From Clostridiales bacterium (lineage in GTDB: Bacteria; Bacillota; Clostridia; Christensenellales; UBA1242): a stretch of DNA of 64,000 nt. Made by a program: the position numbers and the translations under genes. Of this stretch, positions 19,263-42,410 are shown piece by piece. The notes under the pieces were generated by a model that saw nothing but the letters and a program-made list of their open reading frames with translations, was not told the DNA's origin and ran no database searches. The first letter of the stretch is position 1, and every line of letters starts with the position of its first letter. The stretch lies in the NCBI GenBank assembly GCA_918292005.1, contig CAKJZJ010000017.1, positions 5,051 through 69,050 of the forward strand. The letters run 5' to 3'.

Positions 19263-19379
19263 TTTTTCACCTAATATATTTATATTTCATGGCTTTTAAT
19301 TCATGCTTTATTTTATATAAATGATAAGAAAAAAATCATGGATTGTCAAATTTTTTGCTAGTGATAATAAAAAAGCAGG

Positions 19380-21214
19380 ATGGGTTATCAATTTTGAAAT
19401 TTGCAAAAAAGACTAAAAGTAAATTTAGTCTTCTTTTATATTTACAAATTTCCAGTGATAACCACCAGAGCTTTGAGATTTACCTTTACAACATACAGAT
19501 ATAGCACTACGGCTCACATTTATGGTTTGTGCCGCTTCCTTAATGCTATTATAAATAATGCCTGTATCTAAATTAACGACTTTTTTATAATGTGAAGATA
19601 TAGTTATTTGTCTTGCACACTTTGGACAGTTGCGACCTCTTACTCTACAACTAGGACTGGTTTGCCATTCGTAGCCACATTTCTTACATTTCCACCAGTA
19701 TTTTTTATTTGTTTGTGGTCTGATTTGATATGGTTTAATATCGCCATTTTTTTCATAATGCCATTCTTTTACAATTTTAGGAAACAATGTTTCTAAATCA
19801 TTATCGCCAGATAATACTTTTTGTCCAGCACAATATGGACAACCACATTTCATACTGCCTGCTCTTGATGAAACAGTTGCTTGCCACTCGTGTCCTTTTT
19901 TGCACTTCCACCATACTTTTTTATCACTACCTAGTGTAACATATTCAGGATTAACTTTGTTCCTATCATAATCCCATTCGTTTATTAAAATGTGGTTAGC
20001 GATACTATTTTCTTTTGATATTGTTAAAGCTTTATTTAGTATTTTCATATAATCATTTTCAATGTTTGGGGTTGAATTAAGGTTTGTATTAAAAGCTTTA
20101 TTAATAAAATCAAATGTTTGTTTAATAATTTCTTTAAGTTGTAAAATAGGGTTTTTATAAATATTTACATATACGAGATATGAATTTGTTTCATATTCAG
20201 GACAACCAATCTCACGAATACGCACTAGTTTTAAATTATTTTTAGCACATAGTTGATCTTTTTTAAAATCACGTTCTATATTTTTATGCCATTGCCTACC
20301 ATCATATTCTATACCTAAATTTAATTCTGGTATAAATATATCAATTTCCATTGTGTTTAACCAATCAAAATGTTTACTCTCTTCGATTTTAAAATATTTT
20401 GACAAGTAATATGATAATGTTTTTTCTCGAATAGAAGTTTTTAATTCATTTTTACAATATGGACATTCAGTTTTTAAACCAGCTCTTGATCCAATTGTTG
20501 CCAACCATTCATGACCTTTTTTACATTTCCACCAAATCTTTTTAGTCATTCCATGGCTAACCTCTTGTGGGGTTAATACATTTTTTTCATAATTCCACTC
20601 TTTTAACAATTCAGGATGTGTCGTTGCTAAGTCATTTACTCCCACAATGATTTTTTGACCTGAACATATTGGACAAACAATTCTACCTTCCGTCATGTGG
20701 CAAACTTTCGCTTGAAAAACATGTCTTTTATCTTTATCACAAATCCACCAAACTTTTTTGTTGCAATGTGGAAAAATTTCACTTGGTTTTTCTTTATTCA
20801 AATCATAATTCCATTTTCTTGCTATTTTTGGAAATAATGTTTGTAAATCATTTTTACCACTCACTAAGATTTTATTTGCACATGCCGGACAACCTTGTCC
20901 TTTATTTCTATTATTACAGATGCTTAACCATTCATAATTACAAATGTGGCATTTCCACCATGCTTTTTTATTACTACCAAGAGTTGTTTTGTCTGGAAAA
21001 ATACCAAGAGAATTATTTTTCTCCCAGTTCCATTCTTTCATTAACTCTTTGTTGTTTATTATATAATCTTTGATCATATGTGTATTATAACATAAAAATA
21101 ATAAAAAGTCTCGAATTGACCAAATTTTTGTGTTAAGAGAGAATTAAAAAACACCCTAACTTTTTCAAGTTAAAGTGTTAATTATTTGGCTAGTTTCAAA
21201 AGTCAGCAACTATA
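19380..21214. mobile_element. Cassette A: non-autonomous element with conserved ends, inserted in the degV terminator loop
   Basis: Both ends are shared with 40242-42339. Flanked by AAAAGCAGG (19371-19379) and CCTGCTTTT (21216-21224). Boundaries are uncertain by about 3 bp. Confidence 0.75.
19425..21077 (-). CDS. Zinc-ribbon repeat (DUF4379-like) protein with Vsr/DUF559-like nuclease and NUMOD1-like C-terminus
   Basis: Five WWxC...CPxC modules, central EIDIFIPELNLGIEYDGRQWH, and C-terminal YNSIKEAAQTINVSRSAISVCCKGKSQSSGGYHWKF. Confidence 0.8.
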   Translation of the reverse strand: MIKDYIINNKELMKEWNWEKNNSLGIFPDKTTLGSNKKAWWKCHICNYEWLSICNNRNKGQGCPACANKILVSGKNDLQTLFPKIARKWNYDLNKEKPSEIFPHCNKKVWWICDKDKRHVFQAKVCHMTEGRIVCPICSGQKIIVGVNDLATTHPELLKEWNYEKNVLTPQEVSHGMTKKIWWKCKKGHEWLATIGSRAGLKTECPYCKNELKTSIREKTLSYYLSKYFKIEESKHFDWLNTMEIDIFIPELNLGIEYDGRQWHKNIERDFKKDQLCAKNNLKLVRIREIGCPEYETNSYLVYVNIYKNPILQLKEIIKQTFDFINKAFNTNLNSTPNIENDYMKILNKALTISKENSIANHILINEWDYDRNKVNPEYVTLGSDKKVWWKCKKGHEWQATVSSRAGSMKCGCPYCAGQKVLSGDNDLETLFPKIVKEWHYEKNGDIKPYQIRPQTNKKYWWKCKKCGYEWQTSPSCRVRGRNCPKCARQITISSHYKKVVNLDTGIIYNSIKEAAQTINVSRSAISVCCKGKSQSSGGYHWKFVNIKED

Positions 21215-21222
21215 ACCTGCTT

Positions 21223-22059
21223 TTATTTATCAAGGAAAAGTACTCCTATACAATTCTCGCCACAATGGCTAGATATTGTGCCACCTGCTCTGGTAGGGTA
21301 GATGTGACCAAATCCACGATCTTTCAGTATCTCTGTGATGGCTGTTTCGGCTTCGGGCATGTCGGTCGAACTAGTGATAAATACATAGTCTAGTTCGGGA
21401 TCGGGGTGGGATACTAGCAAATCTTTGCAGTATTTGATGGCTACTTTGTTTATGTCGCCGGTGTATTTTTTACCTACACCCATTTTGCCATTAGCGACAA
21501 TGATTTGTGGTTTGATTCTTAGGATATTAGCACCCAACATTGCTAGAGCAGAACATCTGCCACCTTTGTATAGATAATTGAGTTTTTCTAGAACAAAACT
21601 TGCTTGGGTTTTTTCGGTCAGTTTGTTTATAGTGGCGACTATCTCTTCTGGAGACTTGCCGGCTTTTGCTAGCTCTGTGGCTTTGATGGCCTGTAGTGCA
21701 ATACCGGTAGATAGAGTTTTGCTATCTATTACATATACGTTACTCATCTCTTTAGCTATCATAACGGCATTATTGTATGCACTGCTCATTAGAGAACTGA
21801 GTGTAATGTGTATTATTGCATCGTAGTCCTTTTTTAAGTTTTCGAAATATTCCTTGTATTGCTCTGGACTGACGGCAGATGTCTTTGGTAATTTTTTGGT
21901 TTTAGATACGTACTCAAATATATCTTTTGATATACCAAATCTATCTTTTTCAATTTTGTCACCAAAAGTTATAGAGAATGGTGTGGTGGTTATGCCGAAT
22001 TTATCTAGTAATTCTTGTGGTAAATCGATTGTGCTTTCGGCAGATATTGCTATTTTCAT
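21223..22059 (-). CDS. DegV family fatty-acid-binding protein
   Basis: LPKTSAVS, SSLMSSAY, IDSKTLSTG, YLYKGGR and ISSHCG motifs. Confidence 0.9.
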   Translation of the reverse strand: MKIAISAESTIDLPQELLDKFGITTTPFSITFGDKIEKDRFGISKDIFEYVSKTKKLPKTSAVSPEQYKEYFENLKKDYDAIIHITLSSLMSSAYNNAVMIAKEMSNVYVIDSKTLSTGIALQAIKATELAKAGKSPEEIVATINKLTEKTQASFVLEKLNYLYKGGRCSALAMLGANILRIKPQIIVANGKMGVGKKYTGDINKVAIKYCKDLLVSHPDPELDYVFITSSTDMPEAETAITEILKDRGFGHIYPTRAGGTISSHCGENCIGVLFLDK

Positions 22060-22265
22060 AATTCATCTCCTAGTTCTTTTTATATTTTCATTGTATTGCA
22101 AATGTGATTTTTTTACACTCTAATTTGTGTCCTGGGAATTCTCTACTGATGCGAGTTAATTCTACTAATCAGTTTTGTCACTCTATTATGAATAGAGTGG
22201 GCAAAATTTGCTTGTATTGACGGCGTGTATGTGCTAAAATAAATGTAGAATGAAAAGGGAAAATT

Positions 22266-23474
22266 ATGAAATTATTGGCTAGTAACAAATGGAAAAAAAG
22301 ATTGCCATTTGATAATGTAATATATAAAGATGTGCGTAGGCATAGTCTGCAATTAAGTGCTTTAGAGCGAGAAATTATGAACGTTCAGATAGATTTCTAT
22401 AGAACGCATTTTTCGCTTGAGCAGGTAATGGTTCATTTCCGAATTTTGAAAACTCCAGAAGAAAAAGAAACTTTTATAAAAGCAGTATTGAAAAGACTAG
22501 ACAATGTACTCTATATCCCTGTAGCATTGAATGGCTATTATAAAAAAATAATTAAAGAAGAATTCGCCGAATATAGAGCATTTTTTGAGATTGTGCTGAA
22601 TAGGTCCTTGGAACAAAAACACGACAATCTAATGTTGCCTATATACAAAAAAATATTTGGCGAATATTACAAGTGTATTGTAAAAGATGTAAATAAATAT
22701 TATAAACAAAAACCATTCATGGTATCTGATAGAGTATTGAAACCAGAAGCCCAGGAGAATACTGCTAGAGATATAATAAAGAGTATTCAAGATGATCTAT
22801 ATCTTGCTGCTATCTATGGCAGGTCGACGGTTAGACGTAGTGTGCCTATATCTGTAGTTGATGATTATGGTTATGGCGAGTGGACCAGTAAAAATGTATC
22901 ATTTGCTACCAATAGATTTTATCTATATGCCAATCATGATAAACTCACCAAATTGCAATTAGAATATATGATATATCTGAATGTTTATCCGGGCTATGGA
23001 CATTTCTATAATACTGTGCTAGATGAGCCACATAATATATGTTTCGATAATGGTGCTACTTATCTAATCAATGGCTGGGGAATGTATGCATCATGCTTTA
23101 GTAAAAATTCTCCTTATGCTACAAATAGACTGGTGGAAGCATGTACTATTGCACATCATCTGCTGGGTAAAAATCTAGAGAAAGCATTTGAAAATGTTTA
23201 CGTATATCTACTCAGCAAATATACCAAAGCACAAGCACAGGAGTATCTAGCATCTTATTCCCAATTCCCAGGAGATTATATGAGTTATGTTTTGGGGGCT
23301 CTCGCTACATTTGAGTGTATCAAAGTGGGTTTTGCCAATAATCCATTAGACTATCTGAATACACTAAAAGATATTAATTGTGGAGATTTTTTCGCATTGT
23401 ATTCTCCTAAAATGCAGAGAAAAATCGCCAAAACTACTATTACAGCCAAAGTTTCGCCTAAATTTTTACAATAA
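22266..23474 (+). CDS. DUF885-like protein with degenerate metallopeptidase motifs
   Basis: YLNVYPGYGH, INGWGMYA and PGDYMSYVLG align with DUF885 HExxPGHH, EGWALYAE and PGQAxxYxxG. Confidence 0.55.
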   Translation: MKLLASNKWKKRLPFDNVIYKDVRRHSLQLSALEREIMNVQIDFYRTHFSLEQVMVHFRILKTPEEKETFIKAVLKRLDNVLYIPVALNGYYKKIIKEEFAEYRAFFEIVLNRSLEQKHDNLMLPIYKKIFGEYYKCIVKDVNKYYKQKPFMVSDRVLKPEAQENTARDIIKSIQDDLYLAAIYGRSTVRRSVPISVVDDYGYGEWTSKNVSFATNRFYLYANHDKLTKLQLEYMIYLNVYPGYGHFYNTVLDEPHNICFDNGATYLINGWGMYASCFSKNSPYATNRLVEACTIAHHLLGKNLEKAFENVYVYLLSKYTKAQAQEYLASYSQFPGDYMSYVLGALATFECIKVGFANNPLDYLNTLKDINCGDFFALYSPKMQRKIAKTTITAKVSPKFLQ

Positions 23475-23502
23475 AAAAGAAGGACTAAGTCCTTCTTTTT
23501 TT
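23472..23502. terminator. Bidirectional intrinsic terminator
   Basis: AAAAAA GAAGGAC TAA GTCCTTC TTTTTT. Confidence 0.8.
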
Positions 23503-23509
23503 TCTTATA

Positions 23510-23941
23510 TTAATCTCTATCCATAGTATCCACTGTATGTGGTTTGTATCCGTATGCAATTTTAGTCAAATATTTGCCGAGCATACCATTCAATTCGGAT
23601 GCTTGAATTATGCCTTTGTTAGACATAGCATTGTAATAGTATACTTCGAGTAATTCTCTAGACTTTACTATTGCGCTTACTAGGTCGCGTTGGGTATATT
23701 CTACGTCCATTGTATGATTCTCGCCTAGTAGTATTCTAGAGTCTCTGATATCTCCTCTCAATGTATCCAAGAATTCTTCCATTTTGGCACTAGTTCTAAA
23801 TGCAAAAGAACGATTGAATAGTCCGACTTGGCTCTCTGGTACCATTGTGCTTTTAACATTGTTGAGAGCCAATTCCAATTCACGGTCTCTTTTTATATGA
23901 ATACGTAGTGTTTCTTCATTTGGTTTAATTTGATTTTTCAT
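23510..23941 (-). CDS. Hypothetical protein (143 aa)
   Basis: GGGGGA RBS before ATG 23941. The longer ORF-track start overlaps the divergent gene and is unlikely. Confidence 0.7.
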   Translation of the reverse strand: MKNQIKPNEETLRIHIKRDRELELALNNVKSTMVPESQVGLFNRSFAFRTSAKMEEFLDTLRGDIRDSRILLGENHTMDVEYTQRDLVSAIVKSRELLEVYYYNAMSNKGIIQASELNGMLGKYLTKIAYGYKPHTVDTMDRD

Positions 23942-24095
23942 TGTATTTCCCCCAATCCATTTTCCTGTTACAATTTTATCATAGTATGGGGGATGTGTCA
24001 ATAGTGAATTTTTTTGGGGTGGGCATTTAGAGTAGTATTGCAAAATGTGTAATTGTATGCTATAATATGTACAATAAGAAATATGGGGGTGTATT

Positions 24096-25241
24096 ATGCC
24101 TGTACCAGATAGTAGAGATTTGAGAATTAGGAAACTGCTCAATGCGAGAGTGTCAGAGAAATTAAAGACATTTAGAGACAAGATATACTGTGTGTATGCA
24201 GATACGTCTGATTGCAATATAACTCTATCCAATTTATATGATAATTTTGTAGAAGAATCTGGAAGTCATTTCGGCGATACGATTACTAGAATTGGTAGAC
24301 ACCAGGATAGTCAAAGAATGGGTAAATATACAGTATATAATTACTTTGATAATGATTCACTATATGCTTTTGACAAATACTTGGAAAAACTATTACAATT
24401 CATTTACAATAATAGGGAAATAGTTCAGGGATATAGATATCCTAGAATTACACCTCGCACTATAGACAAATCAATGCAACAAGTAGTGGATTGGTCTGTG
24501 AAAAATAAAAATAAAAGTGAATCAAATTATTACAAAGGCTATGCCACACTAGCACTCAAATCCGAAAGGGGATATTTACATCTAGATCCTATCACGACAG
24601 GAGTGTCCAAGACTCTAGCAGGCAAATTAACTCCAGCAGAGATTGATGATGAAATAAATGAATACTTCAGAGAAAGACATACCAAGACTAGTGTCACTAC
24701 CACCGAGCCTGCACGTACAACAGGATTGACACATATATCTGACATTATTCCCAAGGCCATTCCTAAGCCTGCTGAATTGTCCGAAGATGAAGCAGATGTA
24801 TATGAATATATAGATTATACATACCATGACAAGAATGGAGACAAACACTGCAAATTGCGTATTGATAGTGATGAGTGGTTCTATGATAGTGAAGGTGTCA
24901 TGAATATTCGTAAAATCATAGCAGTAGGTCCAGAAGGAATGTTGATTGGTACATACAGGTGTGATGATGGACAATTAGCAAATAGACGAGTATATACTGG
25001 ACTATTGTATGACGAAGAATACAATCCTGTGCAAGATGAAGAAGAAACAGGTGAAGTATTCTACCCACATAAATCTCTAAGGGCTGCATGTGGTGAGATG
25101 AGAGAAAGGGTGGCAACAGAATCAAAAACCAATCCAAAAAATACAGGTAAAAAATCTACTAGAAAACCTAAAGTAAAACCAGACGATCCAAACCAGATGA
25201 CATTATTTGATAATCCAACAGATGGCAAAGATGAAATGTAA
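24096..25241 (+). CDS. Hypothetical protein (381 aa) with C-terminal QMTLF motif
   Basis: GGGGGTG RBS and a downstream terminator. No family recognised. Confidence 0.75.
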   Translation: MPVPDSRDLRIRKLLNARVSEKLKTFRDKIYCVYADTSDCNITLSNLYDNFVEESGSHFGDTITRIGRHQDSQRMGKYTVYNYFDNDSLYAFDKYLEKLLQFIYNNREIVQGYRYPRITPRTIDKSMQQVVDWSVKNKNKSESNYYKGYATLALKSERGYLHLDPITTGVSKTLAGKLTPAEIDDEINEYFRERHTKTSVTTTEPARTTGLTHISDIIPKAIPKPAELSEDEADVYEYIDYTYHDKNGDKHCKLRIDSDEWFYDSEGVMNIRKIIAVGPEGMLIGTYRCDDGQLANRRVYTGLLYDEEYNPVQDEEETGEVFYPHKSLRAACGEMRERVATESKTNPKNTGKKSTRKPKVKPDDPNQMTLFDNPTDGKDEM

Positions 25242-25277
25242 AAAGAAAAAGAATGAGACTGCTATCTCATTCTTTTT

Positions 25278-26297
25278 TTATAATTGAATTATTCTAAATC
25301 CGGCGGCACGAATTAGTCTATTATATACAGCCATGGATATGCCTGTTGTTTCTGGACATCGGGCATATACTGTTTCGGCATGCATTTCATCCAATTCACG
25401 TAGCGCTCTAAAGAGCCTATGGGCTTGTTCCTGTGGACTAGTAATACTACCATAGGTGATAGTGGGTAGTACAAAGGCATCTTTTTCTTCATCAAAGCAC
25501 ATTACAAACATGTTATCACAAGTGTGCATATCTACATATTTTTTAAATTCTTCTAGTGTTCCTTTTAATATTGTGATATTTGCTTTTGGGGCATAATGTT
25601 TATATTTAATGCCAGGAGATAATACTTTTTTGTCAGAAACGTGTTTTTCTAATACGCCTTTTGCAATATCAACTTTTTTGTTTAAACATGTCTCTATCAT
25701 CTCTTTGGTGATAACACCTGGACGTAAGATAATAGGGGTGTCGTCTAGCGTAGATATGACTGTGGACTCTACACCAGCATCACATTCCCCACCATCTATG
25801 ATGAGTGGGATTCTACCTATCATATCGGTGTATACATCATTTGCATTGGTGGGACTGGGTTTGCCAGATAGATTGGCGCTGGGTGCTGCAAATGCAATTC
25901 TGGATCTAGATATTATCTCATGTGCTATGGGATGTGATGGCATCCTGACTCCCACACTATTTAGACCTGCACAGGTGCTATCACACACCTTATTACCTTT
26001 AGGCATAATAATTGTGATTGGCCCCGGCCAAAATGTCTCAGCGAGTTTTTTTGCATCATCTGGGATTTTAGATACAATGCCGTCCAGCATATCCATATTT
26101 GCTATATGTACTATTAGGGGATTGTCTTGAGGTCTGCCTTTTGCTGTAAATATTTTTTGTATTGCTGATGGATTTGTACTATCTCCTGCTAGACCATAGA
26201 CAGTCTCTGTCGGTACTGCTACGACTTCTCCATTTTGCAGAAGTTTACAGGCTAGATTTATACTATCTTCTGTGGGCTTTAAAATTTGAGTTTCCAT
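25278..26297 (-). CDS. sua5: Threonylcarbamoyl-AMP synthase (Sua5)
   Basis: PTETVYGL, KGRPQDNPLIVH, APSANLSG, STV and SPGIKYKHYAP motifs. Confidence 0.93.
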   Translation of the reverse strand: METQILKPTEDSINLACKLLQNGEVVAVPTETVYGLAGDSTNPSAIQKIFTAKGRPQDNPLIVHIANMDMLDGIVSKIPDDAKKLAETFWPGPITIIMPKGNKVCDSTCAGLNSVGVRMPSHPIAHEIISRSRIAFAAPSANLSGKPSPTNANDVYTDMIGRIPLIIDGGECDAGVESTVISTLDDTPIILRPGVITKEMIETCLNKKVDIAKGVLEKHVSDKKVLSPGIKYKHYAPKANITILKGTLEEFKKYVDMHTCDNMFVMCFDEEKDAFVLPTITYGSITSPQEQAHRLFRALRELDEMHAETVYARCPETTGISMAVYNRLIRAAGFRIIQL

Positions 26298-26402
26298 ATC
26301 TGCTCCTTTGACTACATAATAATATAACACACATGTTTTTTTGTTACAAGTGAGTGGTGGGTTTTGTTTTGTAATTATTATTTTTCTGGGTATAATAGTA
26401 GT

Positions 26403-27224
26403 ATGAAAACCAAAGAAAAATCAAAAAATGCTTGTAAAAAAATTTATTACTATTCAGACCCTTTGAATGATGATTTCGCTGGTACAAATATAAAGACTAA
26501 ACAGGTCGGGGAGAACTTTCAATTTTTACATAAAAGTTTATTTTGGCGATTTCTATCATTTATTGCTTACTATGTAGTGGCATTTATACCCGTATGGATA
26601 TTTGTTCGCATTATCCATGGTGTAAAATTCAAAGGCAAGAAGAATTTGCGTAAGGTGAAAGGCCCCAAATTTTTCTATGGTAATCACACTCAAATAATAG
26701 ATGTACTAGAGCCTAGCATCATTTCTTGGCCTAGGAGAAATAAGATAATGGCATCTCCTGATGTTGTATCCATCTGGGGTATCAAAAATTTCGTACAGAT
26801 GCTAGGGGCTATTCCCGTTCCTAATAATATAGGTGCTCTAAAAAAATTTAAAACGGCTATCGATTATGACTATAAAAGGGGTTACGATATCTATGTATTC
26901 CCCGAAGCACACATTTGGCCATATTATACTGGTGTTAGACCATTCAGTGATGTTACATTCTCCTATGCTATTAGTTTAAATGCGCCAGTATTTGCATTCT
27001 TTACAGCATATTCTCCACCTAGGAGTATTTTTAAACTTTTCCCACACAAAACAACCAAGACTATATATATCAGTGAGCCTTTTTATATAAATACAGATTT
27101 GCCTAGGAAAGAGGCAAAAAAAGACTTGCGTGATAGAGTGTATAATTGGATGTTAGATTGCTCCAAAAAATACAATACATACGAAGTAATTCAGTATGTA
27201 CAAGTAGATAAAAAAGAAAAATAA
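26403..27224 (+). CDS. Lysophospholipid acyltransferase (PlsC-like)
   Basis: NHTQIID (HX4D) and FPEAH motifs. Confidence 0.8.
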   Translation: MKTKEKSKNACKKIYYYSDPLNDDFAGTNIKTKQVGENFQFLHKSLFWRFLSFIAYYVVAFIPVWIFVRIIHGVKFKGKKNLRKVKGPKFFYGNHTQIIDVLEPSIISWPRRNKIMASPDVVSIWGIKNFVQMLGAIPVPNNIGALKKFKTAIDYDYKRGYDIYVFPEAHIWPYYTGVRPFSDVTFSYAISLNAPVFAFFTAYSPPRSIFKLFPHKTTKTIYISEPFYINTDLPRKEAKKDLRDRVYNWMLDCSKKYNTYEVIQYVQVDKKEK

Positions 27225-27254
27225 AAACTGCTATTACTAGCAGTTTTTTTGTTT

Positions 27255-28631: not shown

Positions 28632-28877
28632 GATTGCTCCCCATAAGGTTCTAATAAATTTATACTATATTTTACACTTTTTATTTGTTTTTGTCTAAAA
28701 AAAACCACGTATTTATAAATATTATTGATATTAATAATAAACGTATTTTACACCCATTGTGTGCAAAATGCAATAGTATTATAAAATATGATGTTGGGGT
28801 GGATTTGGCGTAAATATTTTGAGAAAGGAAAAACTTATGTTAGAATGAAAATAATTAAATAATTTTGCGAGGTAATA

Positions 28878-31133: not shown

Positions 31134-31197
31134 TATACAATACGGGCAAACAAAAAACGACTTGAGTAGTACAAGTCGTTTTTCTTTACTTATATTA

Positions 31198-33413: not shown

Positions 33414-33465
33414 TATAGCGACACATATAAGTGTCGCTTTTTGTTTGTTATATATAGAGTTTGTG

Positions 33466-34275
33466 TCAATTAATTGTATTCATTTGCCAAATACTATATT
33501 CTTTTTCAAAATCTTGTCGATACGTTTCTCCAATGGTATTCTGGTATTGGTCGAATGTTTGTGCAAATTTTTGTTGTGTTGAATTGGTTATATTTGCCAT
33601 GTGTTTTTCGTATTTTTCTATATTGTCCTGTATCATTTGTTTTTTAATGTTTTGTAGTGATTCATCGTGTTTATCTGGCAGAGTGGTATGGATATTATGA
33701 ACCATATTTATGAGCTCTATTTCTGATAGTTTAGTTAGCCTTAGTATATCTACCCCAGGGTGGTTTTCATGTAGTCTTTTTACCAATTTATATTTATTGA
33801 TATCTCCTACGCCATTAGTGATTTTTTCGTCGTACATGTCTCGATCTTCGTAGTTTTCACATACGGCACATAGTATTTCTTTTTGTCTAAGGTAATTGTA
33901 GACATGCTCGACTATATGAACGTCGAGTGCCTGTGTGAGTCCGTCTATTACTGTAATGTTTACAGCATTATTTTTATCATCTACATCTATAAATCCACAT
34001 CTAGCACACTGGTCCATAAAATCGGTGGTTGCTGTGGCTATGTCTAGTCCAGTGTAGTCTAGATCGGATAGAACTATCGCTGCATCTTCGTTGAGTGCTT
34101 TGCTACTAACGACTTTGTAGTTTTTATCACACAGAAATTCTACCCTAGGATTTATCTCTATCATTATGTAATTATAATCTCTGGCTGTAATGCCTAATAC
34201 TATTATTAGTGTTACAGCACATGAGATTATAAAAACTACGAATGCCAGTGCTATAATTGTTTGTTTTTTTTCCAT
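33466..34275 (-). CDS. Membrane protein with RsgI-like extracytoplasmic domain
   Basis: TM helix followed by YIMIEINPRVEF...VVSSKALNEDAAIVL. Confidence 0.7.
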   Translation of the reverse strand: MEKKQTIIALAFVVFIISCAVTLIIVLGITARDYNYIMIEINPRVEFLCDKNYKVVSSKALNEDAAIVLSDLDYTGLDIATATTDFMDQCARCGFIDVDDKNNAVNITVIDGLTQALDVHIVEHVYNYLRQKEILCAVCENYEDRDMYDEKITNGVGDINKYKLVKRLHENHPGVDILRLTKLSEIELINMVHNIHTTLPDKHDESLQNIKKQMIQDNIEKYEKHMANITNSTQQKFAQTFDQYQNTIGETYRQDFEKEYSIWQMNTIN

Positions 34276-34396
34276 ATCTGATACCGAAATTTTTCTTTTA
34301 TCTTTTGCAAAAAGGTTTTATTTATGTGTAATATAAATTATTTTGTTAGTTGTCTATTTTGTGGTACAATGTTTTTAAAAAATAGGTAGGTGTGAT

Positions 34397-35245
34397 ATGG
34401 CATTGGTTTTGAATGGAAAATTGCTTGCTCAGGCTACAGAAGAAGATTTAAAAATTCGTGTGGAAAAAGTTAAGGAAAAACTGGGATATACACCAGTGCT
34501 TGCCACCATTCTAGTGGGGGATAATCCTGCTTCGGTAACTTATGTTAATATGAAAGCAAAAGCATGTGAAAGAATAGGAATGGGTTCGCAGATAGTGAGA
34601 CTTGCAGAGACCACAACTACCCAGGAATTATTGGACGTTATAGATACACTCAATAATGATGTAAAAGTGTGTGGAATACTTCTTCAACACCCTGTACCTA
34701 AGCAAATAGATGAGCGTGCATGTTTCGATAGAATATTACTATCCAAAGATGTTGATGGAGTAAATTCTCAATCGTATGGTCTAATGTCCATGGGTAGAGA
34801 TGCTTATGTGTCGGCTACACCATTTGGTATTATGAGAATTTTGAAACATTACGGAATAGAACTTGCTGGCAAACATGCTGTAGTTGTGGGAAGATCTGCC
34901 ATTTTAGGCAAACCAGTTGCGATGCTGCTACTCAATGAGAATTGTACTGTCACAATATGCCATAGCAAAACAAAAAATTTGCCCGATATAGTCCGTACGG
35001 CAGATATAGTTGTGGGTGCAGTGGGCAAACCTAAGTTTATCCAGAGTGACTGGGTAAAAGATGGGGTGGTTTTAGTAGATGCTGGCTATAATCCTGGTAA
35101 CATCGGAGATATAGATTTGGAAAATTGTATCAATAAATGTTCTGCCTACACTCCTGTGCCAGGTGGAGTAGGACCAATGACTATCAATTCACTTATTTTA
35201 CAAACGGTTATGTCTGCTGAAAAACTAGCGAATGATGAGAGATAA
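34397..35245 (+). CDS. folD: Bifunctional methylene-THF dehydrogenase/cyclohydrolase
   Basis: [20 protein letters not shown] and [11 protein letters not shown] motifs. Confidence 0.95.
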
Positions 35246-35558
35246 GTTGACTCTGTATTTTGTCTAAAGTTTCACAGATTTTATCCAATTGTGTGTTGTT
35301 TAAATTATAGGTATAGATATTGTTTTTTACGGCATTATCTATATCTTTTTTTAGTATAATAAATGCATCATCGTACATGCCATTTTCTTTTATTTTTTCT
35401 AGGCATAAATCCCTTAGTTTTATGGCTATATTACTTGCATTATTTAGTCTTTCTGTATCAATGTTTAGATTAATTATAATCATACTTTTGCACTTGAGCA
35501 AAATGCGACTAATCTCTATATAATTGTCTAGTAGTTTTAGTTTCTCTTTATATCTCAT
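35208..35558 (-). CDS. Hypothetical protein (116 aa)
   Basis: AGGTGG RBS before ATG 35558. Its 3' end overlaps the folD 3' end. Confidence 0.55.
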
Positions 35559-35687
35559 AATCCACCTATGTATTGTATATGTTGGCGACACAATGGATTG
35601 TGAATACTGAATGCTCCAATATCACCTACATTGCTTGACAATTTACGCTTTATTTAGATATAATCTAAATAATAAAACTACGAAGGT

Positions 35688-36434
35688 GTGCACAACGTGA
35701 AAAAAAGTATATATCGGTGTTTCTTTAAAAGGCTTTTCGATGTAGTATGTTCATTTCTGGCGATTATAATATTGTCGCCAATTTTTTTGCTAACTATAAT
35801 ACTATCGGAAATATTTATAGGTGGTAATGTTTTCTTTAAACAATACAGACCGGGCAAAAATGGTAAAATTTTTCCACTTGTTAAATTTCGCTCCATGACG
35901 AATAAAAAAGACAAAGATGGAAATTTGCTACCCGATAAAGATAGAATTACCTGGTGGGGTAAGGTTATTAGGAAAACTAGCATAGATGAATTACCACAAT
36001 TATTTAATATTTTAGTCGGACATATGAGTTTTATAGGTCCAAGACCTAGAATGGTAGAAGAATGTGTCTTTCTAGATGAAACCCAGCAAGACAGATTTCG
36101 TGTAACCCCAGGTATTACTGGATGGGCTCAGGTGCATGGTAGAAATACGATTACTTTTGATAAAGTTGTTGAGTATGATAAATATTACGTAGAGCATATT
36201 TCTCTATGGCTAGACATCAAGATATTCTTTATGACTATAGGATACGTGTTTAAAAGGAAAGGTATTAATAAAGAAGGCACGGTATCTAATGAATTTCATG
36301 GAGACTATTTGCTTCGTACCGGCCAAATAGAAAAAGATTATTATGATGAAAAAATCGCTCAGGCAAAAGAGATGATTGCAGAAGCAAAAGATAAAAAATA
36401 CAAAAAGAACAAAAAGAGAGTAGATAATGTTTAG
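35688..36434 (+). CDS. Priming sugar-1-phosphate transferase (EpsL/PglC-like)
   Basis: KRLFD, KFRSM, RKTSIDELPQL, GHMSFIGPRP and PGITGWAQV motifs. Confidence 0.9.
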   Translation: MHNVKKSIYRCFFKRLFDVVCSFLAIIILSPIFLLTIILSEIFIGGNVFFKQYRPGKNGKIFPLVKFRSMTNKKDKDGNLLPDKDRITWWGKVIRKTSIDELPQLFNILVGHMSFIGPRPRMVEECVFLDETQQDRFRVTPGITGWAQVHGRNTITFDKVVEYDKYYVEHISLWLDIKIFFMTIGYVFKRKGINKEGTVSNEFHGDYLLRTGQIEKDYYDEKIAQAKEMIAEAKDKKYKKNKKRVDNV

Positions 36435-37545
36435 TGGTAAAAAAATAATGTTGGTTGCAACAACAGACAATATGATATGGCAGTTTTTATTGCCACATAT
36501 AAACTATATGATTAAGGCCGGCAATACTGTGGACTGCTATTGTACGAAGACTGGCTTTTGGTTTGATGATATGAAAGAAAAGTATGGTCTAAACGTCATA
36601 GATATTCCATTCACACGTAGTCCATTTAGTATCAAAAATATTAAAGGATACAATCAGTTGGTTGCTAATGAAAAAGATAAAAAGTATGACCTTGTGTATT
36701 GCCAACAGCCAGTTGGTGGCGTAATGGGTAGACTTATTGCCAAAAAGTTCAAGATACCATGTATATATACTGCACACGGTTTTCATTTTTACAAAGGTTG
36801 CCCTTTGATGTACAAGTTGCTTTTTAAGCCTGTAGAGAAGTATTGTGCGAAGTATACTACAGCACTGGTTACCATGAATGAGGAAGACTACCAGAATGCA
36901 CAAAAATTCAAAGCAAAGAAAGTATACAAAATTAATGGTATAGGTGTAGATTTATCTAAATATAAAAAGAATGAAAAATTAGATGCCAAGGCTTTTAGGG
37001 CTCAATTTGGTATTGCTCCAGATGACTTTGTAATAACATCTATCGGTGAATTGAATAAAAATAAAAACACATTACGTCTAATAGATGTAATGTCCCAGAT
37101 ATCTAATCCCAAGATTAAATATCTCATTTGTGGTCAGGGGCCATTAAAAGAAGATTATGAAAAAGCAATAGCAAAATACAATCTGCAGGATAGGGTAAAA
37201 ATGTTGGGGTTTAGAAAAGACATTCCAGATATACTGACTATCACTGACTTGTATATAATGCCATCTTATCGTGAGGGGTTACCTAAATCCATGATGGAGG
37301 CTATGTGTTATGGATTACCAGTGGTTGCATCCAAAATTCGTGGCAATATGGATTTGATCGGTGAGAACGAAGGTGGAATATTATTTGACCCAACTCGTAA
37401 TGCAGAGATTATAGATAGTATTATGCAGATTTATGAAGATAAAGCTCTTAGAAACAAATTTTCAAAAAGAAATGCCGAGTTTATCAAAAATTATGATACT
37501 TCGGTAGTTATAGACCAATTAGAAAAAATTTATGAAGAAATGTAA
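36427..37545 (+). CDS. GT4 family glycosyltransferase
   Basis: YTAHGFHF and PSYREGLPKSMMEAM (EX7E) motifs. Confidence 0.9.
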   Translation: MFSGKKIMLVATTDNMIWQFLLPHINYMIKAGNTVDCYCTKTGFWFDDMKEKYGLNVIDIPFTRSPFSIKNIKGYNQLVANEKDKKYDLVYCQQPVGGVMGRLIAKKFKIPCIYTAHGFHFYKGCPLMYKLLFKPVEKYCAKYTTALVTMNEEDYQNAQKFKAKKVYKINGIGVDLSKYKKNEKLDAKAFRAQFGIAPDDFVITSIGELNKNKNTLRLIDVMSQISNPKIKYLICGQGPLKEDYEKAIAKYNLQDRVKMLGFRKDIPDILTITDLYIMPSYREGLPKSMMEAMCYGLPVVASKIRGNMDLIGENEGGILFDPTRNAEIIDSIMQIYEDKALRNKFSKRNAEFIKNYDTSVVIDQLEKIYEEM

Positions 37546-37550
37546 TTGAC

Positions 37551-38846
37551 ATGGAAAAAGAAAAGAAAAAAGTCCTGATTAATAATACGATAATGATGTA
37601 CATACTCAGTATAGCCAAATTAGTTATACCACTTATTTCATTACCATATCTCACGAGAGTATTATCCGTAGAGTGCTATGGTAGTGTGGCTTATGCTAGA
37701 AGTATTGTTTCCTATATGCAGATACTTATTGACTTTGGTTTTATATTATCTGCAACAAAAGATATTGTAAACATAATTAAAAAGAAAAAGTCTCCATCTA
37801 TTATCATTGGAGACACTATGTATGCTCAATTACTATTGTGTGTAATTGCCACGATAGTGATGGTAATTATGTGTTTCTGTATGGATATACTGAAAGGCTA
37901 TGAATTATTTGCTATTCTTACATTGATTCCATCAATTATGTCTATCTTTCTGTTTGAATATGTGTTTAGAGCATACGAAAAGATGGATAAGATTGCCATT
38001 AGATATGTTATAGCCAGGGTAATATCACTAATACTAGTATTGATATTTGTTAAATCCGATTCAGACATATATCTGATGCCAATATTTGATTGTATTGCAG
38101 TATTTGTGGCAATACTTCTAGTGTCAGTGCAAATGAAAAAATTAGGAGTACATATCAGCTTTAATCTCAAAAGATTTCTACCAGCACTGAGAGTTATAAA
38201 AGAATCTTTTATATTCTTTTTGTCAGATTTTGCCACGACGGCTTTCTCTGCTCTAAATACATTGTTAATAGGTATATTCTTAACAAAGACTGATGTGGCA
38301 TATTGGGCAGTGGCTTTACAATTAGTGAGTGCTATTCAGGCACTGTATACGCCTATTACCAATAGTGTTTTCCCAACAATGTTAAAAGAAAAAGAACTAA
38401 AAATTGTGCACAGAATAATGCTAATATATATGCCACTGATTTTCATTGGTTGTGGACTAGTTGTATTATTGGGCGACTGGGCTGTAGTTCTTGTATTGGG
38501 TGATAATTATCTCATGTCTTCTACATTACTCAAATATCTCATTCCGGTACTCATAGCATCATTCCCGGGACTACTATATGGGTGGCCATGTTTGGGGGCT
38601 ATAAATAAACAAGGAACAAATACGATGGCTACTTTTGTTGCAGCATTATTTCAGACATTCGGTATAGGGGTATTACTCATGATAGGTCAATTTAATTTAC
38701 TCGCTATCTGTATAGTAAGGGGATTTACCGAATTTGTATTGGCAGGATATAGGGTAATAGCTGTTTACAAAAACAAGCATTTGTTTGTTGGTGGAGAAAA
38801 AAACACAGAGATTAATGAAACTAATGTAAATGAGATGGAAGTTTAA
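37551..38846 (+). CDS. Wzx-type oligosaccharide flippase
   Basis: PYLTRVLSVECYG and DFGF motifs, with many TM segments. Confidence 0.85.
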   Translation: MEKEKKKVLINNTIMMYILSIAKLVIPLISLPYLTRVLSVECYGSVAYARSIVSYMQILIDFGFILSATKDIVNIIKKKKSPSIIIGDTMYAQLLLCVIATIVMVIMCFCMDILKGYELFAILTLIPSIMSIFLFEYVFRAYEKMDKIAIRYVIARVISLILVLIFVKSDSDIYLMPIFDCIAVFVAILLVSVQMKKLGVHISFNLKRFLPALRVIKESFIFFLSDFATTAFSALNTLLIGIFLTKTDVAYWAVALQLVSAIQALYTPITNSVFPTMLKEKELKIVHRIMLIYMPLIFIGCGLVVLLGDWAVVLVLGDNYLMSSTLLKYLIPVLIASFPGLLYGWPCLGAINKQGTNTMATFVAALFQTFGIGVLLMIGQFNLLAICIVRGFTEFVLAGYRVIAVYKNKHLFVGGEKNTEINETNVNEMEV

Positions 38847-38945
38847 AATAGATGTAATAATGATAAGATTTGTTTCGTCATGAAATACAATTAGATAGTC
38901 AATAGTTTACTTTTCATCATAAACTAAATACAAGGTGGTAAGGTA

Positions 38946-39650
38946 ATGTATAAAAACTTAAAAAAGATGCCTACACATATTGCTTTTATTCTAGATGGCA
39001 ATGGTAGATGGGCAAAAGAACGTGGGTTGCCTAGGTCAATGGGACACAAGGCAGGACTAGACAATTTAAAAAAGATATTGAAAGAGTGTTTTTACAAATG
39101 TGATATTCCATATGTGAGCATATATGCATTCTCTACAGAGAATTGGAATAGACCACAAAAAGAAATAGACTTTATCACAGGACTTGCTAAAAACTTTTTC
39201 GTTGATAGATTTTTAAAGAATTTTCCAGGCGTTAGACTAAATATCATGGGAGATTATACCAAATTCCCTAGTAATGTAGTAAAAATGGCAGAAGACACTA
39301 TCAATGCCACCAAGAAAAATACTAAATATGTACTTAATCTAGGTGTAAATTATAGTGGTCAAGATGAAATAGTGCATGCTATCAATGGCATTATTGCCGA
39401 TGGCATACAGAGCGTAGATAGAGATACTGTGGAGAAGTATTTATACACAGCAGGTCAGCCACCAGTAGACTTGCTGGTTAGGTCTAGCGGTGAGCAGAGA
39501 CTCAGCAATTTTATGCTATGGCAATTAGCATATGCAGAGTTTTATTTTTCCAATGTTATGTGGCCTGCTTATGATAAAAAAGAATTTCTAAAATCCCTTA
39601 TCGATTACCAGAATCGAGATAGGCGATTTGGTGGTATAAAGGAGCAATAA
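38946..39650 (+). CDS. uppS: Undecaprenyl diphosphate synthase
   Basis: HIAFILDGNGRWA, FSTENWNR and RSSGEQRLSNF motifs. Confidence 0.93.
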   Translation: MYKNLKKMPTHIAFILDGNGRWAKERGLPRSMGHKAGLDNLKKILKECFYKCDIPYVSIYAFSTENWNRPQKEIDFITGLAKNFFVDRFLKNFPGVRLNIMGDYTKFPSNVVKMAEDTINATKKNTKYVLNLGVNYSGQDEIVHAINGIIADGIQSVDRDTVEKYLYTAGQPPVDLLVRSSGEQRLSNFMLWQLAYAEFYFSNVMWPAYDKKEFLKSLIDYQNRDRRFGGIKEQ

Positions 39651-40240
39651 TGGATATATCTATTCTAAATTGGATTAATAGTAATCTTCATGGTAGTGTG
39701 GTATTTAATTACCTATTTAAATATATTACATATACTGCCGAGTGGGGCGCAATATGGTTGCTCACGGCACTGGTTTTGCTATTCTTTAGACGAACTAGAC
39801 GTGGTGCAATTATTTTGTTTATTGCCTATGGTGGTGTGGCATGTGTAAATCTTGTGCTCAAACATTTTATAGATAGACCTAGACCATTTTTAGAGAATGC
39901 AGAATTTGTATCGTTTATCGAGTCTATCAATATGAAATTGCCCGATTCTTCTAGTTTCCCTAGTGGTCATACGGCTCTGTCATTTATGGCAGCGACTGTA
40001 CTTACTCTTACCTTTGGTAAATATGGCGCATGGTCATATATATGGGCTGTGCTTGTAGCATTCAGCAGGATATTCTTATGTGTGCATTATCCTACAGATG
40101 TGCTAGGTGGTGCAATGGTGGGGGTTATCGTTGCATTCGCCGTATTCTACATTTGCAAATGGATATTCCCTAAAATAGAAAAATGGTGGCAGGATAGACA
40201 TAAGGACAAGCCTAATGAAGACAAAAATAAAAGTGCATAA
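39650..40240 (+). CDS. PAP2 family phosphatase (undecaprenyl-PP phosphatase-like)
   Basis: K...RPRP, SFPSGH and SRIFLCVHYPTDV motifs. Confidence 0.88.
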   Translation: MDISILNWINSNLHGSVVFNYLFKYITYTAEWGAIWLLTALVLLFFRRTRRGAIILFIAYGGVACVNLVLKHFIDRPRPFLENAEFVSFIESINMKLPDSSSFPSGHTALSFMAATVLTLTFGKYGAWSYIWAVLVAFSRIFLCVHYPTDVLGGAMVGVIVAFAVFYICKWIFPKIEKWWQDRHKDKPNEDKNKSA

Positions 40241-40241
40241 G

Positions 40242-42339
40242 ATGGGCTATCAATTTTGAAACTTGCATAATATTGAAGGAATCTTATTCTAGAAGGTTCC
40301 TTTTTATAATTTTTTTAAAAAAATAACATTTTTATATTCGCTTATGTTATACTATTGTTGTAGTGTTATTGGAGTATAATTATGCCAAGTGGTAAAAAAA
40401 GAACAAATGAAGAGTTTTTGAATGAGTTTAATAGAAAAAATACAAATTCATCATCTATAAAAATATTAGGTCAATATTTGAATAATAACACAAATATTGC
40501 GTGTTTATGTTTGAAATGTGGAAACAAATGGAATCCCACTCCAAAAACATTATTAAGTAATCATGGTTGCCCTAAATGTGGGAATAATCAAAAATTTACA
40601 AAACTAGAATTTCTTAATCAATTTCATAAGAATAATTCGCATTCTGAAAATATAAATGTTATTGGTGAATATGGTGGTGTATCAAAAAAAATTAAATGTG
40701 AATGTAAAATATGTAAAAATATTTGGTATACTCGTGCTGGGGATTTGATTTATTCTAATTCAGGATGCCCAATTTGTTCTGGGAGTATTACACAAACACA
40801 TAATATTTTTTTAAAAAAAGTGGCATTTAAAAATATTCATTTTAATGATATCGAATTTAAAAGTCAATACACAGGTTCATTAAACAGAATAAAATGTCAA
40901 TGTAAAATTTGTGGACACGAATGGGAACCAATAGCAAGTAGTTTGTTGCAGGGTACAGGATGCCCTAAATGTGCACAAATCAAAACATCGCAAAAAGGAA
41001 AAGAAATTCTAAAAAAAGTCAGAGACAATAACCCGGCTGTAAAAAAAATGTCTCATAAAGATTTCATAGAGAAATTATATCTAAAAAATCCTTATGCCAA
41101 TAGTATAGAAATAATAAATGAATACAAAGGCGCAAATACTAGATTAAGATGTAAATGTAAGCGATGTAATAATATATGGGAGCCAATGGCTAGTGCATTA
41201 TTACAAGGACAATTTTGTCCTAGATGTCAACATTCATCAACGTCTTTTATGGAACAATTTATTGCACAAGGTTTAATTTATGTTTTAGGTAAAAAACATG
41301 TAATTCAAAGAGATAAAAAATTGATAAATAAAGAATTGGATATTTATATACCAAAATACCAATTAGCAATTGAACCCGGCTCATGGAAATGGCATAAAAA
41401 TATTCTACAAAAAGATATTGAAAAAATAAATTTATGCAAACAAAAAGGTGTTAAATTGATCATTCTCTATGATTCATGCCCTGAAGACAATATAAAAAAT
41501 GAAAACATTATATGTTTTAAAAATGATTTAGGTAGTGAAAAAAATCATAAGACATTAAAACAATTTTTAAAATCAATATTTACACAAAATAATATTATTG
41601 TTTCAGAGGATATGACTATGTGGAGTAATATTGAACAAAGAGCATATAAATTATCTCAAAGAATTACAAATCAAGAGTTTATTGAAAAATTTAAAATAAA
41701 TAATAATCACTATGCAAACATTATCATTAAATCTCAATATACTAGAGCAATAGATTCTATTGAATGTGAATGTAAAAATTGTGGAAATATTTGGAAAACA
41801 CCAGCATATGAGTTATTAAAAGGCAAGGGTTGTCCGAAATGTCAAATAAAACAGGTTGGATTAAAGAAGCAAAAAAGAAATATAATTAAGGAATGGCGAA
41901 GACAAAATCCTTATGGAAATAAATTACAATGTGAAAAAGAAACTGGAATAAGCAGAGTTACAATTTATAAATGGTGGAATGATTAAAAATAATTGGCATT
42001 TAAACGTGTGCTAGTCTTGATACAAGTCGTTGTCGCTTCGCTCCAACGAAGACAAGCACACAATAAATAAAATCGGTTAGAAGAAAGAGTGTGTGCTGGC
42101 GTTAGCATTAGCACAACACTCTTTCATTTTTCTCTTTGTTTTTTAGTGTAAACGAATATTCTTTGTTGTCAAGGTTAAAATGTATGTCTTGTAATTGTAA
42201 ATATTAAGATAACAACGACAACCTATGACAACGGCATAATATCCGTTTTGTTGGCTGGTTAAGAGAGAATAAAAAACACTCTAACTTTTTCAAGTTAAAG
42301 TGTTCATTATTTGGCTTGTTTCAAAAGTCAGTGACTATA
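40242..42339. mobile_element. Cassette B: same end family as cassette A, inserted in the PAP2-gene terminator loop
   Basis: Shared ends. Flanked by AAAAGTGCAT (40230-40239) and ATGCACTTTT (42339-42348). Boundaries are uncertain by about 3 bp. Confidence 0.75.
40382..41986 (+). CDS. Zinc-ribbon repeat protein with Vsr/DUF559-like nuclease and C-terminal HTH
   Basis: Five CxCxxC..W...GCPxC modules, central ELDIYIPKYQLAIEPGSWKWH, and C-terminal KETGISRVTIYKWW. Confidence 0.8.
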   Translation: MPSGKKRTNEEFLNEFNRKNTNSSSIKILGQYLNNNTNIACLCLKCGNKWNPTPKTLLSNHGCPKCGNNQKFTKLEFLNQFHKNNSHSENINVIGEYGGVSKKIKCECKICKNIWYTRAGDLIYSNSGCPICSGSITQTHNIFLKKVAFKNIHFNDIEFKSQYTGSLNRIKCQCKICGHEWEPIASSLLQGTGCPKCAQIKTSQKGKEILKKVRDNNPAVKKMSHKDFIEKLYLKNPYANSIEIINEYKGANTRLRCKCKRCNNIWEPMASALLQGQFCPRCQHSSTSFMEQFIAQGLIYVLGKKHVIQRDKKLINKELDIYIPKYQLAIEPGSWKWHKNILQKDIEKINLCKQKGVKLIILYDSCPEDNIKNENIICFKNDLGSEKNHKTLKQFLKSIFTQNNIIVSEDMTMWSNIEQRAYKLSQRITNQEFIEKFKINNNHYANIIIKSQYTRAIDSIECECKNCGNIWKTPAYELLKGKGCPKCQIKQVGLKKQKRNIIKEWRRQNPYGNKLQCEKETGISRVTIYKWWND

Positions 42340-42410
42340 TGCACTTTTTATATTTGAAAAACAAAAAACACCTTTATATATTAGAAGGTGTTTTTATTCG
42401 GCTACCTTGA

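Follow-up and report, generated by a model that had tools for sequence, protein, structure and literature searches.

What places different genes between the same pair of ends at two loci of one genome? The question is raised by a 64,000-nucleotide stretch of a Clostridiales genome (hereafter the window; C17:5051-69050 of the 1.2-Mb, 19-contig genome G000), in which cassette A (19380-21213) and cassette B (40240-42337) have both of their ends in common. Here we argue that A and B are likely to be non-autonomous, recombinase-less derivatives of integrative, probably mobilizable, elements of the large serine recombinase (LSR) type from gut and rumen Clostridia, comparable in this to cis-mobilizable elements (CIMEs) and miniature inverted-repeat transposable elements (MITEs). 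A first-pass annotation of the window had proposed a family of non-autonomous cassettes, alike at their ends and interchangeable in their cargo, that is mobilised in trans, and our comparisons support this proposal, since the ends are paired, linked to cargo and absent from syntenic empty sites.

Alignment confirmed the shared ends. Of 27 positions in the left ends (19379-19405 and 40241-40267), 25 are identical, and an 83-nt alignment of the right ends (21132-21214 and 42258-42339) gives 92.8% identity. The inverted core TTTTGAAAC / GTTTCAAAA is present in both ends of A and B. As the annotation had also stated, what lies between them is a pair of non-identical, AT-richer nuclease genes in opposite orientation, with no transposase or recombinase gene in either cassette. 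Each contains a single cargo open reading frame (550 aa on the minus strand in A, 534 aa on the plus strand in B), the two proteins are only 24% identical, and the cargo has a GC content of 0.30 in A and 0.265 in B, lower than that of the window (0.35) and of neighbouring genes (0.37-0.385). Cargo A comprises five DUF4379 zinc treble-clefs and a NUMOD-like helix-turn-helix (Pfam), and cargo B five CapR-homology zinc domains; a PD-(D/E)xK-like core motif (ELDIYIP...IE) is common to both, and both match phage homing-endonuclease-type PHROGs (559, 681 and 3339 for A). A PDB sequence search with cargo A matched DUF4379 only. The extended -10-like motif in front of nuclease A also occurs upstream of the cargo in other copies. 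The features of the two loci, in window coordinates, are as follows.

19371-19379, unstranded: left arm AAAAGCAGG of the degV terminator, split by cassette A; repeats 21216-21224 perfectly in inverted orientation, with an A-run and a T-run beyond the arms
19380-19410, plus strand: left end of cassette A by sequence comparison (putative attL side, P' half-site), core TTTTGAAAT, with CA at the junction in place of TA
19410-19437, minus strand: nuclease A's own terminator, a hairpin then a T-run on this strand; each copy has its own hairpin here
19425-21077, minus strand: cargo A, 550 aa, resembling phage-type homing endonucleases (Pfam, PHROGs, PDB)
21084-21094, minus strand: extended -10-like motif TGTTATAAT of nuclease A, a putative promoter read from the sequence
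21132-21213, plus strand: right end of cassette A, with an insulating hairpin (21150-21179, a minus-strand terminator) and the right inverted repeat (21185-21213), which ends in AAC followed by the junction TA
21216-21224, unstranded: right arm CCTGCTTTT of the degV terminator, overlapping the degV stop codon
40229-40239, unstranded: left arm AAAAGTGCATA of the PAP2-gene terminator, split by cassette B; inverted repeat of 42338-42349
40240-40270, plus strand: left end of cassette B by sequence comparison, the junction TA followed by AGATGGGCTATCAATTTTGAAACTTGCA
40382-41986, plus strand: cargo B, 534 aa, with five CapR-homology zinc domains and a PD-(D/E)xK-like core, oriented opposite to cargo A
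42006-42061, unstranded: hairpin 1, origin-like, with the bulged motif TCTTGATAC at 42015-42023 (from stem covariation, linkage to Rep and LSR genes, and the pC194 origin motif CTTGATA)
42083-42125, unstranded: hairpin 2, a long bidirectional terminator-like stem of the conserved module (from comparison of copies)
42148-42232, unstranded: relic of a Rep-LSR intergenic region with an operator-like palindrome, TTGTCAAGG...TGACAAC, alignable with the sequence that precedes the LSR gene in genome G008 and at locus L094
42258-42337, plus strand: right end of cassette B, with a hairpin (42275-42304) and the inverted repeat (42310-42337), which ends in GAC followed by the junction TA
42338-42349, unstranded: right arm TATGCACTTTTT of the PAP2 terminator, pairing with the left arm

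Sharing of these ends is not a matter of chance, because the genome holds four further copies and the end core is found far above its control. A search for the core TTTTGAAACTAGCNAAA with at most 2 mismatches, controlled by the reversed pattern, gave 17 matches in G000 against 1 for the control; it matched in all 41 species of the genus, above the reversed control in most. The four further copies are variously decayed. One (C2:49933-52030) combines a relative of nuclease A, 77% identical, with a 265-bp non-coding module 91% identical to positions 41994-42258 of cassette B. A second (C7:84876-89657) has a right end, no detectable left end and, as adjoining cargo, a 650-aa Schlafen-group-3/DUF2075-like helicase; the copy on C9 is degenerate. 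The last is divided between two contigs (C14:1-561, reverse, and C16:1-1400) whose ends overlap by 12 nt (ATCTATTATATC) and which together make up one decayed element. It comprises a left repeat, two genes (one of 149 aa, the other for a repeat protein of ~385 aa), hairpin 1 at C16:1219-1271 and hairpin 2 in truncated form; a right repeat is absent from it, and it abuts a terminator and a tRNA gene. As a separate observation, a second open reading frame of 826 aa lies upstream of the C7 helicase, and the two may be a defence pair.

Each two-ended copy is bordered by a pair of inverted arms that differs from locus to locus, with an A-run and a T-run beyond them (AAAAGCAGG / CCTGCTTTT for A, AAAAGTGCATA / TATGCACTTTTT for B, AAAAGCAGTGC / GCACTGCTTTT for C2). 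Copies with both ends between matching arms were counted three times in G000, eight times in the genus and ~17 times elsewhere. By their sequence, these flanks together make up a bidirectional intrinsic terminator, one arm on either side, with the element in its loop, and each of the elements that we defined by convergent end pairs 0.8-6 kb apart sits in a split terminator of its own. The empty-site comparison that the annotation had suggested for the adh-degV and PAP2 loci returned plain terminators in relatives: the degV-adh synteny of G005, G021 and G015 contains one with no split, and the PAP2 synteny of G005 an intact terminator (AAAAAAGACATATAGA-loop-TCTATATGTCTTTT) from which the element is absent. 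The cassette claim itself had included neither the split terminators nor the double hairpin of B described below, both of which the same reader had recorded as separate findings.

At the junctions, the pattern is arm-TA-AGG...TTTTGAAAC on the left and GTTTCAAAA-N6-GAC-TA-arm on the right, with terminal inverted repeats of about 28-30 bp. TA is found at both junctions in B, C2 and their relatives, an identical 2-bp repeat of the crossover type; nothing else is common to the two junctions, and the flanks are inverted, not direct, repeats. A T-run follows 61 of 63 distinct right ends and starts at +8 to +12 past the junction TA in 52 of these, and T occupies positions +11 to +15 past TA in 84-95% of cases. 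The putative attP half-sites carry TTTT at +10 and +12, and the target rule appears from these alignments to be one of sequence and spacing rather than purely of structure.

The conserved DNA inside the cassettes points to their source. Most elements have, adjoining the right end, 270-450 nt of conserved non-coding DNA whose core is two hairpins: hairpin 1, with the layout GTGTGCTTGTCT-TGATACAAGT-[inner stem-loop]-AGACAAGCACAC, and hairpin 2, a long terminator-like stem. In hairpin 1 the inner stem shows covariation (GTTC/GAAC, GGTG/CACC, GTCG/CGAC, GTTG/CAAC), and the one-sided changes, read on one strand, give wobble pairs in 9 cells and C-A in 1. It is accordingly a single strand of the module that folds, as RNA or as single-stranded DNA (ssDNA). 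The bulge of hairpin 1, with TCTTGATAC, contains CTTGATA, a motif also found in the phiX174 origin. CTTGATA is likewise a conserved motif of the pC194 rolling-circle origin (origin sequence: PMC7072734), and on this basis we infer that hairpin 1 is an origin-like structure, putatively of the pC194 type. The alternative that the double hairpin is a small RNA or a 5' leader of the cargo, for which there is a plausible minus-strand promoter and the location of the wobble pairs on the same strand, was ranked below the origin because of the linkage to Rep, though the module may be transcribed. In a side observation, the hairpin 1 bulge CTTGATACAAGT (42015-42026) resembles the end-repeat core TTTGAAACTAGT / TTTGAAACAAGC (40253-40264 and 42318-42330) at 9 of 12 positions, which could be chance in AT-rich DNA or a shared protein-binding motif. 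Neither the ends nor the hairpin module matched an Rfam family, whether judged by gathering threshold or by E-value, and the sole gathering-level match in the window is a tRNA gene (17902-17982, minus strand) outside cassette A and ~1.4 kb from it.

A search of species-representative genomes with a pattern for hairpin 1 only retrieved at least 120 loci, all from uncultured gut and rumen Clostridia, including Christensenellales, Candidatus Caccovivens, Onthoplasma and Scatosoma. At about 58 of the 120 hairpin loci listed, some or all of three genes adjoin (tblastn). They encode a 209-aa protein with weak sigma-70 similarity; a 297-aa Rep that matches Pfam REP_ORF2-G2P at 43 bits, against a cut-off of 27.8, and has the motifs FCTFTY, RLHFHGIFV (HUH) and YIMKYIRK (paired tyrosines); and a 500-aa LSR that resembles Ccr and XisF and contains the domains Resolvase, Recombinase and Zn_ribbon_recom. 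By their sequences, the full-length relatives thus have the HUH motif, the paired tyrosines and, in a hairpin beside the gene, the putative nick motif that would be expected of an HUH Rep system, of which cassette B keeps the hairpin only. Rep had no match among PLSDB plasmids and a single one in an unannotated uncultured phage contig, and no relative of solved structure was found for it by sequence. In all ten LSR loci examined, the right repeat, then TA, a stem and a T-run, follows 57-650 nt past the LSR stop codon.

The autonomous copy with a recombinase between the same ends, for which the annotation had recommended a search, does exist. The element at locus L094 is complete at 6.8 kb, with both repeats, ABC-transporter cargo and matching arms AGACGATT; that in genome G008 is complete at 13 kb, with both repeats, a type I restriction-modification (R-M) system as cargo and matching arms AATAAAAAATCACCAT. 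Their order is left inverted repeat, variable cargo, double hairpin, 209-aa gene, HUH Rep, LSR and right inverted repeat. Both encode the LSR, which A, B and the whole of G000 do not, and the inverted half-site-like ends and a boundary near the recombinase gene are those of an LSR element. Hairpin 1 of the cassettes is 77-95% identical to that of the full-length elements. In short cassettes, B among them, the Rep-LSR intergenic region also survives as a relic that includes the palindrome TTGTCAAGG...CCTTGACAA, and these cassettes are therefore deletion derivatives, in which the 209-aa gene, Rep and LSR were lost internally while the ends, and in B the origin hairpin, were kept. A and B accordingly have what defines a non-autonomous derivative, namely both att-derived ends, internal remnants shared with the larger elements, and no recombination or transfer genes.

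Cargo varies between the same ends. Among the elements examined it includes a C5-methyltransferase cluster with a 498-aa partner; R-M systems of the HaeIII, Eco47II (with an OLD-like ATPase) and NgoFVII-like types; an HNH homing-type nuclease; a uracil-DNA glycosylase as well as an ExoIII-like nuclease; a radical-SAM protein; ABC transporters with an AbrB/MazE-like regulator; GNAT, alpha/beta-hydrolase and isochorismatase proteins; and small proteins without a Pfam match. The annotation's suggestion that the family shuttles zinc-ribbon nucleases thus holds in so far as the nucleases are cargo and is too narrow otherwise, as R-M systems, a helicase, uracil-DNA glycosylase, ABC transporters, GNAT proteins and hydrolases are carried too. 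One exchange lies downstream of a YhhN-family gene in two strains (loci L204 and L205), whose flanks and left repeat are 99.3% identical. One of the strains carries a DUF1749 alpha/beta-hydrolase as cargo there, and the second has a cupin-GNAT protein instead. Homology restarts exactly at TTTGGCA, 12 nt before hairpin 1, and the slot for cargo therefore has fixed boundaries. The non-coding modules are 85-91% identical between species whose DegV proteins are 40-68% identical, and the same composite occurs in two different terminators, at L245 and, after rplL, at L247. Five tandem joints of the form right repeat-TA-left repeat were found in metagenomes with a looser joined-end pattern.

These observations suggest a mechanism. 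The inverted repeats of the ends would be the two half-sites of attP, now in attL and attR, and the DNA outside them the halves of a palindromic attB target. On the excised circle, attP would consist of the right repeat, TA and the left repeat joined together, and the LSR would join it to an attB-like site in a terminator through a 2-bp TA crossover. Bidirectional terminators would be hit as mimics of the attP joint, with a central TA(A) from which an A-run in one direction and a T-run in the other are about 10 bp away; as the terminator mimics the joint, the element would land in the loop of the hairpin, and as it carries terminators of its own, read-through would remain blocked. With a palindromic TA, insertion could occur in both orientations, in keeping with a symmetric target. 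After excision, the circle would be replicated or mobilised by Rep and the CTTGATA hairpin, a task that rolling-circle-replication-type relaxases perform in many integrative and mobilizable elements (IMEs) of Firmicutes (PMC5704250). Short cassettes would move only with enzymes supplied by a complete element, and tandem accretion at resident ends, together with excision of different pairs of ends, would exchange cargo. The six copies in G000 are probably immobile relics now, as they are diverged or decayed and the genome has no cognate Rep or LSR.

Several points weigh against this mechanism. The integration and excision of the cassettes by an LSR are inferred from comparison of sequences. Homologues of the 209-aa protein, Rep or LSR were not found in G000, and a close LSR homologue is present in only one of the 41 species of the genus (G008), though the end core matches in all. 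The subterminal sequence of the short cassettes is unlike that of the full-length elements. Characterised LSRs use asymmetric dinucleotides to set polarity, which makes a palindromic TA crossover unusual, and the left junction of cassette A reads CA, presumably a mutated TA. A strict pattern for joined ends had no match; the looser one had none in viral contigs and found arrays but no circular contigs. Finally, strain look-ups for other elements returned filled sites only, save for one cargo swap.

Could Rep rather than the LSR be the mover? Single-stranded copies would then run from the CTTGATA hairpin into terminator loops that are single-stranded through extrusion or on the lagging strand, in the manner of IS91/ISCR, Helitrons and IS200/IS605, and the LSR would only resolve or stabilise the products. 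The origin-like hairpin is indeed the best conserved part of the elements and is kept in short cassettes such as B and C2, about 25 of the hairpin loci listed have Rep without an LSR, the insertion points are hairpin loops, and the asymmetry of the wobble pairs indicates that one strand folds. We nevertheless consider this unlikely: inverted-repeat ends with a shared 2-bp junction have the geometry of a two-fold synapse, whereas HUH elements have asymmetric ends; the CTTG motif is absent from the target loops; cassette A and many others have no hairpin, yet their ends and targets are normal; and the right repeat directly adjoins the LSR gene in all ten cases. It is more doubtful still that A and B are classical mobile insertion cassettes (MICs) or MITEs moved in trans by an unseen DDE transposase, whether IS5/Harbinger-like with TAA or IS630-like with TA. 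Terminal inverted repeats of ~30 bp, TA or TAA at both junctions and a palindromic target of the kind preferred by some DDE transposases would suit such an enzyme, but none was seen in ~45 elements and 240 loci (the genomes were not scanned systematically for transposases, Pfam family by family), and the LSR is the only recombination gene ever found between these ends.

The remaining explanations dispense with a recombinase. We hold it to be very improbable that the zinc-ribbon nucleases are themselves the agents, as free-standing homing endonuclease genes that home into a pre-existing intergenic repeat. Both cargo proteins match phage homing-endonuclease-type families, one with a NUMOD-like helix-turn-helix, and another cassette carries the HNH homing-type nuclease; however, most cassettes with the same ends carry no nuclease, no cargo-free target repeat was seen in the own genome, and the flanks are locus-specific terminators instead of a shared homing site. 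Least credible, to the point of being nearly dismissed, is that nothing here is mobile and that the ends are host regulatory or terminator repeats beside horizontally acquired genes. The ends do contain terminator-like hairpins and the copies in this genome are old and diverged, but the terminators are split with matching arms, syntenic sites are empty, one composite occupies two different terminators, and modules remain 85-91% identical across species in which DegV is much more diverged (40-68% identical).

Some narrower ideas about the ends and targets were discarded on their own terms. Reading TGGCAC as a sigma-54 promoter fails on spacing; IS200/IS605-type ends would be same-strand hairpins, and these are inverted; targeting by an IS110 bridge RNA would require a constant RNA, and the targets vary per locus; duplication of a whole terminator, as in IS1630 or IS231, does not fit one arm only per flank; and a fixed 5-bp offset between attP and attB is not maintained, as the position of the T-run ranges from +7 to +13, though centred near +10.

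With integration by an LSR as the preferred explanation, the closest known systems are the LSR-type IMEs, namely Tn4451/Tn4453 (TnpX) and IME_Rho_tet (PMC12904643, PMC5704250). IME_Rho_tet has LSR-type 21-bp inverted repeats and a boundary 81-90 bp past the recombinase stop codon. Like these IMEs, the complete elements have the LSR gene at one end (with the boundary <150 bp past its stop in the known IMEs), short inverted half-site ends, a 2-bp junction repeat, and passenger genes along with a relaxase, or here a Rep, and an origin. The target sites of TnpX of Tn4451 also resemble the joint of the circular form. Unlike the IMEs, our elements target a class of terminator palindromes and not one gene or a GA-centred site, have an apparently palindromic TA crossover, combine a two-tyrosine HUH Rep (YxxxY) and a CTTGATA hairpin in place of a MobV/MobC relaxosome, and have abundant recombinase-less derivatives with many cargos. 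The HFH, YIMKYIRK and FCTFTY motifs and the CTTGATA hairpin beside the gene recall Rep and origin of the pC194/phiX174 type, which differ in that the Rep here is chromosomally integrated within an LSR element.

For the short copies, the closest concept is that of the CIME, a decayed derivative of an integrative and conjugative element or IME that keeps attL and attR (PMC5704250). A and B keep att-derived ends and have lost integration and transfer genes, and tandem accretions exist; classical CIMEs, however, arise in situ at one gene-specific att site, whereas these copies are spread MITE-like over many terminators within a genome and over different species, and many keep the replication or transfer origin. 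The annotation had instead drawn an analogy with the MICs of IS231. As with MIC231 of the Bacillus cereus group and cargo-bearing MITEs, the cassettes are small, have no mobility gene of their own, share ends with autonomous elements, carry passenger genes and have a palindromic target. MICs depend on a DDE transposase (IS231, of the IS4 family) and make 10-12 bp duplications. The analogy did not survive on either count, as the full-length relatives carry an LSR and an HUH Rep, no DDE partner was found, and the junction repeat is 2 bp (TA), not 10-12 bp. Integron cassettes and attC sites are alike in having exchangeable cargo between conserved recombination sequences, with imperfect palindromes between cassettes in the rare array at locus L246; unlike them, the present cassettes have no IntI tyrosine integrase, attI platform or common promoter, have repeats at both ends, contain promoter-like and terminator elements of their own and are mostly solitary in scattered terminators. 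Literature searches found no description of this element family, which is widespread in gut Clostridia and apparently undescribed. What appears to be new is the use of terminator loops as a target class, the presence of a two-tyrosine HUH Rep and a CTTGATA hairpin inside an LSR element, the abundance of recombinase-less copies with diverse cargo, and the occasional arrays.

The likeness to integrons can be taken further, to a second gene-cassette system, in Gram-positive gut bacteria, in which a chassis of two att half-sites, terminators and an origin hairpin accepts arbitrary genes, arrays grow at resident ends and are re-sorted by the LSR, terminators serve as neutral landing pads and one helper mobilises a genome-wide pool of defence and accessory genes. 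We regard so complete a parallel as doubtful. Its cargo slot would have fixed boundaries, one immediately within the left repeat and the other 12 nt short of hairpin 1, and a bolder possibility is that Rep and the hairpin capture new cargo by rolling-circle read-through.

If integration by an LSR is the correct explanation, one recombinase family uses a whole class of bidirectional intrinsic terminators as attachment sites. This would explain how small, streamlined genomes of uncultured gut Clostridia (~1.2 Mb in the present case) gain and swap defence and accessory genes with their operons undisturbed, and would account for many of the "orphan" structured intergenic elements and split hairpins in these genomes. 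It would also extend the CIME and MITE concepts to serine-recombinase elements, with non-autonomous copies far outnumbering autonomous ones (the end core in 41 of 41 species, a close LSR in one). A serine integrase with a simple, degenerate palindromic target (A-run, ~9 nt, TA, ~9 nt, T-run) would be of practical interest.

Some further observations concern individual parts of the elements. Exact-protein look-ups of the genes flanking the cassettes in the window matched no record. In G018, the plain terminator between convergent adh and degV (L042) reads AAATAAGTTTCAAATTTTGAAGCTTATTT, and its stem contains sequence like GTTTCAAA/TTTGAAAC that resembles the core of the element repeat; this may be a footprint or a coincidence. 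Among the hairpin loci listed, about 25 (e.g., L079, L087, L108, L111 and L119) have a shorter Rep that matches only residues 87-286 of the 297-aa protein, and no LSR, and the same shorter Rep is present in a 57-kb human-gut phage contig (MT835493.1:30769-31353); the hairpin-Rep pair therefore also exists outside the terminator-targeting elements. Hairpin 2 has as its loop a conserved imperfect palindrome, which reads TTGYGCGCTGAACCGCTTGCRCAA in GC-richer lineages. At L143, ~200 nt past hairpin 1, a remnant of the 3' end of a serine recombinase gene interrupts the loop after ...TTACCACAA, and at L100 the hairpin is intact; the loop may be a second recombination site or a protein-binding site. 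Just before the start of the LSR gene, sequence like that of the right repeat (TTTCGCTCTGTCGAAAGACA compared with TTTCGCTAGTTTCAAAAGT) occurs at L238:11150-11200 and L094:5690-5735, which may be an autoregulatory site or else a pseudo-site for deletions of the LSR gene that yield short cassettes.

Cargo-less units of ~95 bp, made up of a left repeat, a terminator hairpin and a right repeat, are joined via TA to the next left repeat in the following places.

L246:321-1427: cargo-less tandem units
L245:429-560: cargo-less tandem units
L247:1465-1600: cargo-less tandem units
L244:13130-13275: cargo-less tandem units

At L246 the tandem arrangement recurs 1039 bp apart, forming a small cassette array with attC-like palindromes between its genes.

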